This document shows, piece after piece, positions 7,347-27,196 of a DNA stretch of 64,000 nt. This stretch comes from a virus (taxonomy: Duplodnaviria; Caudoviricetes), in IMG/VR virus record IMGVR_UViG_3300031992_000018, positions 96,001 through 160,000 of that record; one strand, written 5' to 3'. The notes under the pieces were generated by a model. That model did not search any database, was not told the origin of the DNA, and worked only from the letters and a program-made list of their open reading frames with translations. Within the stretch, counting starts at the first letter, position 1. Each line of letters opens with the position of its first letter. A program made the translations under genes and the position numbers.

Positions 7347-7374
7347 TTGAATTTCCTCATTTTTGTTCTATATT
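7347..7374 (+). promoter_or_regulatory. Putative early promoter TTGAAT-N16-TATATT
   Basis: Same spacing and sequence at 23963, 52686, 58124, 62008. Confidence 0.7.
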
Positions 7375-16080: not shown

Positions 16081-16725
16081 ATGGAAATTACACTTGTTAC
16101 AACATTTGATTTAAGTCAAGATATTACTCTTGATGCTTATAATGAAGATGAAAAAGTAGGTACTGCTGTTATAAAAAATAGTGAACTTACTTATTATAAT
16201 CTTTTGACTCATACTGATGAAAAGTTTACTGAAGATAATCTTAATGAATTTATAGATTTTGTTTCTGAATTTAATCTTAAATTTAAAAAGGTATGGGATA
16301 GAAAATGGATAAAATATAATCCAAATCCTCAGAATAATAACACTGGTGACTGTTCAATTAGAGCTTATTGTAAAGCTGAAAATCTTGAATGGAATACAGC
16401 ATATGATATGGCCACTAAAGTAGGTAAAGAAATGTCAATGATTTGTGATGACCATAAAGTAGTTGATAAGATACTTACTGAAAAATTTGGTTATACTTAT
16501 TACAAAGGAGATCATTGTTTTGTAAAAGATACTGATGGTAAAGGTAAACTTGAGAAAGGAAAAAAGAAAACAATTAATGAGTTTGCTATTGAACATCCTA
16601 AAGGAAAATATATTCTATGGGTTCATGCTCATGTAGTTACAGTAATTGATGGATATTATTATGACTCTTGGGATAGTGGAAATAAAAAGATAAATGGTTA
16701 TTATACAAAAGAAAAAGAGAGGTAA
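16081..16725 (+). CDS. Phage protein with possible Cys/His/Asp peptidase-like triad
   Basis: NPNP....GDCSIRA, HVVTVIDG.YYDSWD. Confidence 0.55.
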   Translation: MEITLVTTFDLSQDITLDAYNEDEKVGTAVIKNSELTYYNLLTHTDEKFTEDNLNEFIDFVSEFNLKFKKVWDRKWIKYNPNPQNNNTGDCSIRAYCKAENLEWNTAYDMATKVGKEMSMICDDHKVVDKILTEKFGYTYYKGDHCFVKDTDGKGKLEKGKKKTINEFAIEHPKGKYILWVHAHVVTVIDGYYYDSWDSGNKKINGYYTKEKER

Positions 16726-22996: not shown

Positions 22997-23093
22997 AAAT
23001 TTTACATACTTAATTTAATTAAAAATAAAAATCTACTATAAAAGTTTAAAGATTTGAATGTTATTTTTATATATAAATAGATAATACTAAGAA

Positions 23094-23936
23094 ATGAAAA
23101 CATTTTCAAATTACATTGATAATATAAAATTAATTGATGAAATTTGTTCTTATGAATATAGTGATGTAGTTCTTGAAGGAATATTAAAGAAAATAGCTAA
23201 TTGGTTTGGTAATAAATCAAGAAATATATCTAATAAATTAAATAATTTTTATGATGAATTATATTATTTTCCAGATAATGTAATAAAGACATTTAATGGA
23301 ACATTATCAATTGCAGCAGATGAAACTAATGATTCACAAGAAAATAAAGATATTATAAATAACATTATTAATGATAAACCAGAAAATATACCAGAAAAAG
23401 TTATAAATTATCTTAAAGAACATGAAAATGATAAAGATTTTTATAATTCAATACTTATTGCTTCATTATGTGTATTAGGTATAAATGTAGCAAATGAAAA
23501 TAAAGATCAAAAATCAGTAGATACTATAAAATTATATTTTAATAAAATTAGTGATAAAATAAAGGAAGATACTAAAGATATTTTAAAAAAATCTACAAAT
23601 AATCCAGATAATAATGATAATGATAATGATAATAATCCTTCAGAAGATCTTACTAAAAAAGTTGATGATGTAGTACAAAATGTAGTAGATGATAATCCAG
23701 ATATAGATATTAATAAAGAAAAAGAAAGAGAATTAATAGAAACAATAACTTGGATGATTTTTTATAAATATAATAAAAATAATATGAATTCAGACGAAAT
23801 TGAAGATAATGCCAAGAGACTTGCTAATATATTAATAAATGAATTAGAATTAGATGATGATTTAAAACAGAAATTTAATATAACTTCATTAGATGATTTA
23901 AAACAGAAAATTGAAGATTATAAAAACAATAAATAA
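23094..23936 (+). CDS. Putative head-internal protein
   Basis: MKTFSNYI leader, VVLE-GILKKIANWFG; TTATTTTTA at 23061. Confidence 0.6.
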   Translation: MKTFSNYIDNIKLIDEICSYEYSDVVLEGILKKIANWFGNKSRNISNKLNNFYDELYYFPDNVIKTFNGTLSIAADETNDSQENKDIINNIINDKPENIPEKVINYLKEHENDKDFYNSILIASLCVLGINVANENKDQKSVDTIKLYFNKISDKIKEDTKDILKKSTNNPDNNDNDNDNNPSEDLTKKVDDVVQNVVDDNPDIDINKEKERELIETITWMIFYKYNKNNMNSDEIEDNAKRLANILINELELDDDLKQKFNITSLDDLKQKIEDYKNNK

Positions 23937-23962
23937 AAAGTTGCAATTTTTGCAACTTTTTT

Positions 23963-23990
23963 TTGAATTTCTAGAAATACTTACTATATT
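23963..23990 (+). promoter_or_regulatory. Putative early promoter TTGAAT-N16-TATATT
   Basis: Identical arrangement to 7347, including downstream attaatgtaa. Confidence 0.7.
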
Positions 23991-23996
23991 ATTAAT

Positions 23997-24390
23997 GTAA
24001 TTAATTTAGCTCTTTGAATGCCATTAAAAATACCTAAAAACCAATATTGAAATCGAGGTTATCTTGAAATAAGTTTAGCAGATTTCACATTTTTTGGAGG
24101 ATAAACCAATGTAATAGATAAAATATATAATTAATTTTATTCTAATTTATTTAATCTTAAGAGTAAAAACTAACAAAGAGAGTTAAAGTTTTTCAAAACC
24201 TTTTTCAACGCTCTCGCAACAATAATTAAGGCGTAAGGTGTTTAAAAAACGAACAATACAGACTAGTCATCTGATATTGAAGCCTGAGTGACTTGGAAAG
24301 AAAAGATAATATAATATTTAATACGAATTATTTAATTTAATTATGAATATAAAAATGAGCACCTTTGAGTATCAGGTGCTCTTATTTTTT
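23997..24390 (+). ncRNA. Unidentified structured non-coding RNA (about 380 nt)
   Basis: Promoter, no substantial ORF, several stems and a possible pseudoknot, terminator 24357-24390. Confidence 0.55.
24357..24390. terminator. Intrinsic terminator
   Basis: gagcacct...aggtgctc followed by a T-rich tail. Confidence 0.8.
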
Positions 24391-24392
24391 AA

Positions 24393-24734
24393 TTATTTAT
24401 TTTTAAATTCTATGTCATGTATATATATTGTTGTAAGATCATCTTCATCAAAGGTTATAAAAAAACTATCTATATAATCATTATCAAAAAATTTCTTTTT
24501 TATCTCTTTAATACAACTATGTAAAAAAGATGATGATTTTTCTTTTTTAAATTTTATATATAACCATTTATCATCATCTATAATAAATGTATAATCATCA
24601 TCTTTATATAAAAATTCTCCATCAAAATAAGATTCTAGATCAAATAATAGTTTATCCATATTATCTGATTTTACATTTATATTTTTATTAAGATGTAATT
24701 TTTCTGTTATATATTGACTTAAATTATTCATCAT
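24393..24734 (-). CDS. Putative head-internal protein
   Basis: MNNLSQYITEKLHLNKNI leader. Confidence 0.6.
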   Translation of the reverse strand: MMNNLSQYITEKLHLNKNINVKSDNMDKLLFDLESYFDGEFLYKDDDYTFIIDDDKWLYIKFKKEKSSSFLHSCIKEIKKKFFDNDYIDSFFITFDEDDLTTIYIHDIEFKNK

Positions 24735-24798
24735 TAAAATTTTTCTTTATACAATTAAAAATAATTTTATTTTTATTTAATTATATAACACAGTATTT

Positions 24799-25485
24799 AT
24801 GAAAACAATTAATGAATATATTAGATTTTCAGTTAATAATATAAACTATAATATTATTGACGAAGCATTAGCTCTTGAATCAGAAGGATGGACAATGCAA
24901 GATGTTTATGAGACATTATTTATAACTGATATTTATGATAATGATCAATTAAATGAAGGTTGGATTGGTGATAAACTTAGAAAATTAGCTGGTGCGGCTG
25001 ATACTGCAGAAGATAAAGCAAAAGAAACAATAAATAAAACAAAAGAAGGTATTAAAAATGCTAAAGATGCAGTTGTTGCAAAATTTGATGAATGGTCAAA
25101 TGAAGCAAAAGAAGCATTCAATAATTTAAAGAAATGGGCCGGAAGTAAATGGGATAAAGTTAAAAAAGATATAACTGAAATAATTGGAAAAATTGAAGCA
25201 GCATTTAATAAAATAAAAGATACAATAAAAAATATTGTTGTTTCTATTGGTAAACTTAGTAAAGATATTGTTTTAACAACAGTAGGTCTTTTAATTTTAT
25301 TAGTAAAACAAATAATAGCATTGATTGATAAAGGTTCAGATTTAGTTATGAAATTATTTAATGATGCAAAATTATTTGCTGGTAATGCAATATTTAATTT
25401 AGGTGCTGTTGCCGCTAAGAAAGCTGGTTTATCTCAAGAAGAATTAACAAATGTTTTAACTTTAACATTTTCTTATGCAAAATAA
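24799..25485 (+). CDS. Helical putative head-internal or ejection protein
   Basis: MKTINEYI leader, LNE-GWIG, amphipathic repeats, hydrophobic segment. Confidence 0.6.
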   Translation: MKTINEYIRFSVNNINYNIIDEALALESEGWTMQDVYETLFITDIYDNDQLNEGWIGDKLRKLAGAADTAEDKAKETINKTKEGIKNAKDAVVAKFDEWSNEAKEAFNNLKKWAGSKWDKVKKDITEIIGKIEAAFNKIKDTIKNIVVSIGKLSKDIVLTTVGLLILLVKQIIALIDKGSDLVMKLFNDAKLFAGNAIFNLGAVAAKKAGLSQEELTNVLTLTFSYAK

Positions 25486-25504
25486 TTTAAATATTATAAA
25501 TATA

Positions 25505-25535
25505 AAAAAGAGCTCTTTTTAAAGAGCTCTTTTTT
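25505..25535. terminator. Bidirectional terminator
   Basis: aaaaagagctcttt...aaagagctcttttt between convergent genes. Confidence 0.75.
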
Positions 25536-27196
25536 TATTTTTCTTCTCTACTATGTTTATTGTATTCTGATGAATGAAATTCTTCTTCAAAAGTATGTTT
25601 AGCACCAGGATTAATCATATAAGCCATTTTTGCCATTATATCTCTATTAAGAAGAACTGGTGTTGATTTCTTTCTATTATCAACAAGAGCAAAATCTACA
25701 TTAAGTAATTTTCTTGAACCAATCTGAATACAAGGTACTATTACAGTAACTCTTTCTTCACGTACTTGTCCAACTATAGGGTTTGAAACCCCACTTTTCT
25801 TAAATCTATATGTTTTACCATTTATAACTGCTGATACTTTATCTCCAACTACTTCAACTGATTCACAACCAATTGTAGAAGCTTTAGCGCCATTACCTGT
25901 ATCAAATTTAGCTTCAAGTTCAAATTCTGAATCATTATCCATAATAAACTTCATATTTTCAATATAACCAATTGATTTAGGTGCAAGTACAAGCTCATTA
26001 ATATCATTGATTGCATCAAGAAGTATCTTACAGAAATTTTCTCCAATTACTTCAGAAATACCTTCTGTACCTGGAGAGCAGTTATATTCAAGAACAACAT
26101 TATCTCCAATCTCTGGATTAGAACCTTTTACAAGAGGCATAATATCAACAGCACACCAAGGCATACCTGAAATCTTTGCTACATTTAATGCAATATCTTC
26201 TTGTTCTTTAGTAATTTCAACTTTTTCAGCTTCTGCACCAAGAGATACATTACTTCTGAAATCACCACCAAGTTTCTTTCTCTTCATACATGCAAGAATT
26301 GTTTGTTTTGTTCTGCTTGTAAGAACATGCACTCTGATATCACCACCATCAGCTTCTTCTTTCTTTTGAAGAAGTAATTCTCTTTCAGGGTCAATAGCAA
26401 ATATTGCTTGAAGAATTGCAAGAATACCTTTACCTGTTGTCATGAATACACCTGTTCCACCATGACCATCAAGAATCTTTACAACATATTCTCTCTTTTC
26501 ATCTTCTTCTTTATTTTCACCTACTTCTTTATAAATAAGTTTAAGTTTCTTCTGAAGAGATTCTTCACCTTTAGATACATCTTTTGAAGAAAGAAGACAG
26601 AATTTTGGTTGTGGAATATCATATCTTTTCATAAGAACAGCTGAAGCATATTTATTACTTGCTCTTTTAGCTGCTTGAATTGGATTAAGAACAAAAAGAC
26701 CCCAATCTTGAAGTTCTTTAATACATTCCATACATTCTTCACTATCTTGTGCACCAAGACGTGCAATAACTATTGTATCTATATTTGATTGATCTGTTAT
26801 AGTAAATTTCTCTTTAGAATCTTTAATTTCAATTTTCTTATCATCTGCACTATAATCAACTTCTTCAGAAACAAATGTTATAAGATTTACATCTGTATTT
26901 TTAAGTGCATCTTGAAGGTTTTTAAGAGTTTTATTTTTTGAAGCATCTCTTTCATTTGTAAAGAAGATAATATTCTTAAAGAAATATTCTTCATTTCTTT
27001 TTATTTTTTCAGCATTCTGTACAGTATCATTTTTTGCACCTAATTGTTCAGCTGCTTGATCAACTGCTTGGTCTTCTGAACCAGGTTTTTCTGGATTTTT
27101 TTCTGCACCAGTATTTTCTTCTGCTTCTAAAATAGATTCTACTTCATCTATTGATTTAATAAATTTTGATTCTAAAAGTTCAGTTAAAGTTTTCAT
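25535..27196 (-). CDS. RimK-family ATP-grasp ligase fused to a RimB-like (retropepsin-like) peptidase
   Basis: VVK..DGHGG.GV, DIRV, FRSNVSLG, AVDIM, VLEYNCSPG; C-terminal AKFDTGNG, LLNRD; leader MKTLTELLE. Confidence 0.85.
   Translation of the reverse strand: MKTLTELLESKFIKSIDEVESILEAEENTGAEKNPEKPGSEDQAVDQAAEQLGAKNDTVQNAEKIKRNEEYFFKNIIFFTNERDASKNKTLKNLQDALKNTDVNLITFVSEEVDYSADDKKIEIKDSKEKFTITDQSNIDTIVIARLGAQDSEECMECIKELQDWGLFVLNPIQAAKRASNKYASAVLMKRYDIPQPKFCLLSSKDVSKGEESLQKKLKLIYKEVGENKEEDEKREYVVKILDGHGGTGVFMTTGKGILAILQAIFAIDPERELLLQKKEEADGGDIRVHVLTSRTKQTILACMKRKKLGGDFRSNVSLGAEAEKVEITKEQEDIALNVAKISGMPWCAVDIMPLVKGSNPEIGDNVVLEYNCSPGTEGISEVIGENFCKILLDAINDINELVLAPKSIGYIENMKFIMDNDSEFELEAKFDTGNGAKASTIGCESVEVVGDKVSAVINGKTYRFKKSGVSNPIVGQVREERVTVIVPCIQIGSRKLLNVDFALVDNRKKSTPVLLNRDIMAKMAYMINPGAKHTFEEEFHSSEYNKHSREEK

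Follow-up and report, generated by a model that had tools for sequence, protein, structure and literature searches.

A promoter-to-terminator unit between convergent genes

The convergent genes ORF280 and ORF113 are separated by a gap of 456 nt (23937-24392), which is occupied by a promoter, an ORF-free body and a terminator, together called the unit hereafter (Table 1). Positions refer to the window, i.e., the whole stretch of 64,000 nt that was analysed (G000:C1:96001-160000), unless they are given for a contig. The contig, a 168-kb IMG/VR virus, has 25% GC and is estimated to be 59% complete. It has the appearance of a giant myovirus of the T4 type, with genes for a baseplate wedge homologue, a RimK-like ATP-grasp protein and an AAA ATPase and with T4-type TATAAATA late promoters. 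A cluster of CarB, carbamoyltransferase and HD-nucleotidase genes is also present.

Coding density in this genome is high. The standard genetic code fits, with TAA, TAG and TGA all in use, and ORFs of at least 150 aa cover 81% of the window. Only three ORF-free gaps of at least 300 nt (no ORF of at least 45 aa) occur in the contig, and that of the unit is the second largest. The largest lies outside the window (G000:C1:22505-23128, 624 nt); it has more GC than its surroundings, a strong hairpin terminator closes it, and an early-type promoter comes next. Its fold z score is -0.69, Rfam has no match for it at E <= 0.1, and it is another candidate RNA element.

Table 1. Features at the locus of the unit and copies of the early promoter class.
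Feature	Position	Strand	Description
ORF280	23094-23936	+	Upstream neighbour
Terminator T1	23935-23961	bidirectional	12-pair hairpin between an A-run and a T-run; the scan detects it on both strands
Promoter	23963-24004	+	-35 TTGAAT at 23963-23968; 16-nt spacer; -10 TATATT at 23985-23990; downstream block ATTAATGTAATTAA
Transcript body (predicted)	23998-24357	+	~360 nt, ORF-free; 42% A, 34% T, 13% G, 11% C
Terminator T2	24358-24390	bidirectional	8-pair GC-rich stem, 9-nt loop, T-run downstream, A-run upstream
ORF113	24393-24734	-	Convergent neighbour; stop at 24393
Early-class promoter copies	window 7347, 23963, 58124; contig 11354, 72602, 76079, 77409, 158008, 160550, 161331
Early-class promoter copies in G001	L023-L043		Over 25 sites

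Terminators lie on both sides of the unit. T1 ends ORF280 and insulates the unit from upstream transcription. At the other end, the T2 hairpin (GAGCACCT(N9)AGGTGCTC followed by a T-run) folds at -12.7 kcal/mol (z = -3.9 against shuffles), classifies as a Rho-independent terminator and is invariant in three strains. The strong terminator reported by the initial annotation is thus present, but it does not belong to the unit alone, being bidirectional and common to the unit and ORF113. Because it also ends ORF113, it provides no independent evidence for an RNA gene.

The proteins encoded beside the unit have no Pfam or PHROG match; ORF113 bears a leader of the capsid-targeting type. A late promoter of the T4 type, TATATATAAATAG, is found ~13 nt before the ATG of ORF280 (23070-23093), so that the putatively early unit adjoins at least one late gene. 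No late promoter was found inside the unit.

The promoter belongs to a class found in two large phages

The initial annotation described an exact TTGAAT-N16-TATATT promoter, and both hexamers and the spacer are present at the predicted place (Table 1). The sequence said to be common with the site at 7347 is also confirmed: the site at 7369 has the same 20 nt, TATATTATTAATGTAATTAA. A bare match to the hexamers nevertheless means little, because such pairs are no commoner in this AT-rich DNA than in shuffled sequence (31 found, 36.8 expected). The promoter would be credible only through an extended, recurring consensus. We found such a consensus: the + strand of the contig has further copies of the motif TTGAATTTC...CTATATTATTAATGTAATTAA, the site at 7347 included, with ~13 copies of the class in the contig and ~25-35 in G001, a related 410-kb phage contig that was reached through the RimK-like neighbour of the unit (66% identical). 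Almost all copies are intergenic and lie on one strand.

We trained a position matrix solely on 25 sites of G001 and scanned both strands of the 168-kb contig with it. The promoter at 23963 scores 34.6 bits, which ranks first on both strands of the 168 kb, and the top 15 matches in the contig are all on the + strand. The promoter of the unit thus fits a sigma-70-like early class with the consensus TTGAATTT-N-CTATATTATNANTGTAATTAA. The class consensus can also be written as ATTGAATTTTT-N-TTACTATATTATtAaTGTAATTAa, and it is common to the two large phage genomes, with nearly all copies on a single strand. Several copies have their -35 hexamer within the loop or the 3' arm of the preceding terminator hairpin (e.g., GAGAAATTCttTTGAATTTCTC), which makes compact terminator-promoter modules.

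What usually follows these promoters is a gene. The two genomes together have 40 matches to the pattern, a few of which are weak, and in 38 of these an ORF opened by ATG starts within ~10-175 nt, usually at a distance of 10-35 nt and after an A/C-rich leader that ends in ATTATG. The two exceptions, which have no ORF start nearby, are the unit and the promoter at 16103 of G001; the latter drives a 12-tRNA operon after a leader of ~270 nt, so this class of promoters does drive genes for stable RNAs. The promoter of the unit is intergenic and preceded by T1, and no gene follows it, a trait that it has in common only with this tRNA-operon promoter; it is the only one of the 40 matches with neither a gene nor a tRNA behind it. 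Its leader also differs from the A/C-rich leaders ending in AACATTATG of the true early genes. Transcription would start at ~23997-24000. That the unit is early, as proposed initially, is plausible, in that, in G001, promoters of the same class stand before many small ORFs and before the tRNA operon, nearly always on one strand.

The body of the unit is non-coding

As the initial annotation had it, the unit contains no substantial ORF: neither strand of 23937-24392 holds one longer than 29 aa, and each frame is interrupted by TAA, TAG and TGA. An altered genetic code was considered and ruled out for this reason, and because each of the three also ends long ORFs. The only longer ORF in the vicinity (44 aa, 24343-24477) begins at the 3' end of the unit, reads through the terminator and is frame-shifted in one of the strains (L021).

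Two smaller arrangements are a 10-codon ATG frame at 24018-24050 and a GGAGG-N8-ATG-TAA at 24097-24116, both probably without meaning. We consider it very improbable that the unit works through micro-peptides made from the 10-aa frame, from the ATG-TAA at 24111-24116 behind GGAGG, or from the 44-aa frame, even though the ATG at 24018 stands at the canonical spacing from the promoter and the ATG at 24111 has GGAGG 8 nt ahead of it. The strains differ from the window by indels of 1-2 nt in homopolymer runs (L021 and L022), and in L021 a 2-nt indel leads the 10-codon frame to an unrelated 18-codon end, while a 1-nt indel breaks the 44-aa frame. Such indels in the body indicate that it is under no coding constraint. 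Furthermore, this phage has no Shine-Dalgarno signal upstream of the starts of 184 long ORFs (just one GGAGG), so that GGAGG is not a ribosome-binding signal here. The base profile from -30 to -1 of these starts has G at ~0.1 throughout, with T favoured at -1 and A at -3, which suggests that the host initiates translation without Shine-Dalgarno pairing.

Traces of former coding were sought as well. We compared the unit by tblastx with ~600 kb of related phage DNA, made up of the remaining contig, G001 and the syntenic loci; the best E was 0.031, with stops inside the alignments. By our estimate, stops interrupt the frame of the ATG at 24018 11 times in ~115 codons, against ~10 expected at random for this composition. 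The three-base periodicity of G in this frame is weak (0.19, 0.11, 0.09), with a chi-square p of ~0.07 by our own estimate and not from a dedicated tool.

The unit resembles no known RNA family and folds like shuffled sequence

The initial annotation proposed a structured RNA. The minimum free energy of the + strand is -61.2 kcal/mol, against -59.65 +/- 4.68 for shuffles (z = -0.33), which does not support it; the - strand has a z score of -1.94. The short pairings listed in the annotation are all present at the positions given for them, but the corresponding sub-regions have z scores of -1.35, +0.25, -0.63, +0.78 and +0.19, not beyond chance, and the proposed H-type pseudoknot rests on 5-nt complements in DNA of 25% GC. 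The sole significant fold in the unit is the terminator hairpin. Covariation, which had been suggested as a check, gave an RNAalifold term of -0.11, and 0 of 101 pairs are compensatory, in a test that has no power with three sequences that are 97% identical. Two substitutions between strains fall inside predicted stems and are both wobble-compatible, too few to count.

Known families give no assignment either. The initial annotation saw no hallmarks of tmRNA, RNase P or tRNA, which agrees with our searches: Rfam 15, whose families also cover 6S, riboswitches and group I/II introns, has no match at the gathering threshold in the whole window, and ARAGORN finds nothing. At E <= 10, the region 23800-24500 has six chance-level Rfam matches of 11-22 bits, all far below threshold. 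Type III antitoxin RNAs like ToxI consist of tandem direct repeats of ~34-36 nt beside an endoribonuclease toxin gene. An antitoxin mimic of this type, also raised initially, would need tandem repeats, and no direct-repeat family or tandem array of that period exists here; more generally, a search of the unit for direct repeats, iterons and tandem arrays found none. A scan for RNA-RNA duplexes against 255 gene starts, made without a shuffled control, was uninformative and gave only long, loop-ridden, AT-rich duplexes.

The contig does carry a match to another RNA family. At its start, outside the window (G000:C1:11-429), the full model of GOLLD (RF02032) scores 88.7 bits (gathering threshold 150; E 8.8e-23), a sub-threshold but highly significant match that adjoins a tRNA-Thr(tgt) gene at 918-991.

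The unit was inserted in a region of rapid turnover

Relatives of the locus are rare. Among 5.8 billion proteins, ORF280 has homologues in only three other clusters (53-57% identity), and in every contig that encodes them a convergent gene on the opposite strand lies 33 nt downstream, the gap consisting of one bidirectional terminator. The syntenic relatives, at ~55% protein identity, thus lack the unit and have a 33-nt shared terminator at its site. One of these contigs (L018/L019) is syntenic through the RimK-like, HD and CarB genes and has four small genes on the - strand in place of the unit, ORF113 and ORF228. Since relatives have the same site without the unit, the unit is an insertion in a hypervariable stretch. 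The stretch from ORF280 to the RimK-like gene (23937-27196, compared with L018/L019:1358-4769 and L021) is a hot spot of cassette exchange. A remnant of the relatives' convergent gene was ruled out as the source of the body, as tblastn matches only the N-terminal leader that this gene has in common with ORF113.

The unit is retained among close relatives: all five contigs with an ORF280 of at least 90% identity have a gap of 448-461 nt at this place despite differing neighbouring cassettes. Three strain-level relatives are ~97% identical, one known by gene layout only and two with DNA (L021 and L022); one 97%-identical strain has an extra 228-aa gene nearby.

Beyond these strains, no homologue of the body was detected. 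Sensitive blastn ('distant' setting) against 50,697 GenBank phages found none, and blastn of the unit against its own contig, G001 and G002 matched just the promoter and the terminator-like ends. A profile of the three strains gave nothing at E <= 10 with nhmmer against G000 (own site masked), G001 and the syntenic loci, and exact and gapped pattern scans of viral, metagenome and GTDB genome contigs revealed no relative of the body beyond the 97%-identical strains. Four 16-mer matches in the viral-contig scan were discarded as chance, being in unrelated contigs of 43-47% GC. Scans of viral contigs with ORF280 and ORF113 found nothing, and the search with the RimK-like neighbour gave G001 and G002, in which the downstream synteny is absent.

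We also rejected a likeness to an element near tRNA genes in G001, which has GCTCTTTGA and GAGGTTATC in common with the unit, because the local alignment scores are within the distribution of shuffles. That contig carries 32 tRNAs and a tmRNA (23125-23452), and an element of ~70 nt, GATCTTTGACATATTCAATTnAAAAGAATTGAGGTyATCAAAGAATT(A)GATCTTTGACATATTGGTACAAC, occurs in it twice, both times beside tRNA genes (C1:16170-16240 and 409277-409345; L023, L043).

Does the body evolve under constraint? In the two strain comparisons, the unit has 0.66 and 1.1 substitutions per 100 nt, ORF280 has 0.83 and 2.5, and ORF113 has 5-9. ORF280 is nearly neutral (pN about equal to pS), and since this comparator itself has pN ~ pS, constraint on the body cannot be shown. 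The divergence jumps at the terminator, from ~1% in the unit to 5-9% in ORF113.

These patterns bear on the reading that the unit is a dead remnant, i.e., that an early cassette made up of a promoter, a small ORFan gene and a terminator lost its ORF, or that recombination between promoter/terminator modules left a promoter facing spacer DNA, so that any transcript is a by-product with no function. We regard this as somewhat unlikely, although several observations speak for it. One is the hypervariable stretch from ORF280 to the RimK-like gene, with four different small genes in relatives and the extra 228-aa gene in one 97% strain. The body has no structure signal, homologues or demonstrable constraint, and the ATG 17 nt after the conserved GTAA, a spacing typical of the class, opens only 10 codons (18 in L021), in the same frame that shows the weak periodicity of G. 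On the other hand, a stop density near random places any coding in the distant past, yet the promoter is the top-scoring one and the terminator is perfect, which is unexpected under uniform neutral decay. Nor did tblastx recover a protein-level remnant of this phage, G001 or the syntenic loci; the leader is unlike those of true early genes, and the genome otherwise tolerates almost no non-coding DNA.

A possible early non-coding transcript

To judge from its sequence, the unit is probably transcribed as a non-coding RNA. Our preferred reading, which we hold tentatively, is an early non-coding transcript that is lineage-specific, maintained by selection, and acts through accessible single-stranded sequence. 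The unit would be a cassette (near-consensus promoter, body of ~360 nt and terminator) inserted between ORF280 and ORF113, in a region of fast turnover. Soon after infection, an RNA polymerase reading this class of promoters would start near 23997-24000 and stop at the hairpin at 24358-24390. The product would be an A-rich RNA of ~365-395 nt in which the 3' terminator hairpin is the only clearly stable structure; it may pair with, or titrate, a partner of the host or the phage and would not act through an elaborate fold.

We take transcription to be maintained by selection because the unit has the contig's best copy of the promoter, whereas stops in its body are as dense as in random sequence. 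A function is further supported by the scarcity of non-coding DNA in this genome and by the presence of another large RNA element in it (the GOLLD-like match). Against the preferred reading count the fold, which is like that of shuffles, the lack of covariation, the lack of homologues beyond the 97% strains and the syntenic relatives without the unit. The substitution rate of the unit, indistinguishable from that of the nearly neutral ORF280, also counts against it, as does a terminator that ORF113 needs anyway.

A more specific version is unlikely in our opinion, namely that the unit makes an abundant immediate-early RNA of ~380 nt, lineage-specific and with no relatives, that acts in host takeover or counter-defence. 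Such an RNA might titrate an RNA-binding protein or a nuclease of the host, or pair with a host transcript. Part of this version is that the promoter appears as strong as the tRNA-operon promoter of this group of phages.

The unit is a predicted orphan early transcription unit, lineage-specific and of a kind already known. Its promoter is better supported than a reading of the sequence by itself could show, whereas a structured RNA with a pseudoknot is unsupported. If transcribed and functional, the unit would add to the poorly charted early ncRNAs of giant T4-like phages from uncultivated hosts, and deleting or expressing it would be easy, given its clean boundaries at promoter and terminator. 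What is well supported goes no further than a promoter and a terminator on either side of non-coding DNA, and this opens no long-standing question; the more useful by-product is the extended early promoter class of two large phages, which can be used to annotate the early units of the group.

Comparison with known systems

The origins of replication of T4 provide one precedent. oriE, oriF and oriG lie in the GC-skew trough at the strand switch, and oriE uses an early-mode promoter (PMC3016281). The unit is like them in that untranslated A+T-rich DNA comes after a promoter, at a place in a T4-like genome where both the transcribed strand and the skew change. It could accordingly be imagined as an origin of this style, at which, as at oriF and oriG, the transcript from the early promoter would stay bound to A+T-rich DNA further downstream as a lasting R-loop and prime leading-strand synthesis, but our analysis makes this improbable. 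The phage is T4-like (baseplate wedge homologue, late promoters), the unit lies in a trough of the cumulative GC skew where gene orientation switches from - to + (contig 119-123 kb), and a stretch of 15-17% GC lies at 24100-24179, 100-180 nt downstream. However, the first 100 nt after the start have 24-29% GC, near the genome mean of 25%, so there is no unusually A+T-rich element at the start as in T4, and the AT-rich stretch is only at the 8th percentile among windows of 100 nt. Gene orientation by itself accounts for the skew trough, the unit has no iterons or direct repeats, and the same strand switch in the syntenic relatives lacks it. Its strong terminator is not a feature of T4 origins.

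GOLLD and ROOL (Rfam) are, like the unit, large ORF-free RNAs of phages, and the same contig has the GOLLD-like match. The unit matches neither at E <= 10 and differs from them in being AT-rich and in giving no fold signal.

In its layout, the unit resembles phage 'morons' and the early-gene cassettes in the hyperplastic regions of T4: it comes with a near-consensus promoter and a terminator of its own, stands as an insert between resident genes, is missing from the site in relatives and has neighbours that vary by strain. It differs from them in being non-coding in six frames and in having frame-shifting indels between strains.

The remaining comparison is with the intergenic ncRNAs reported for lytic and jumbo phages. 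These reports include a dRNA-seq transcriptome map of phiKZ (PMC8244752) and a transcriptome map of PA5oct from which four ncRNAs are reported to have been annotated (PMC7318152). Those ncRNAs were defined by RNA-seq, whereas transcription of the unit is predicted, and no sequence relation between them is expected. In kind the unit appears to be like them, a promoter-bounded, ORF-free unit of a large lytic phage with no assigned family.
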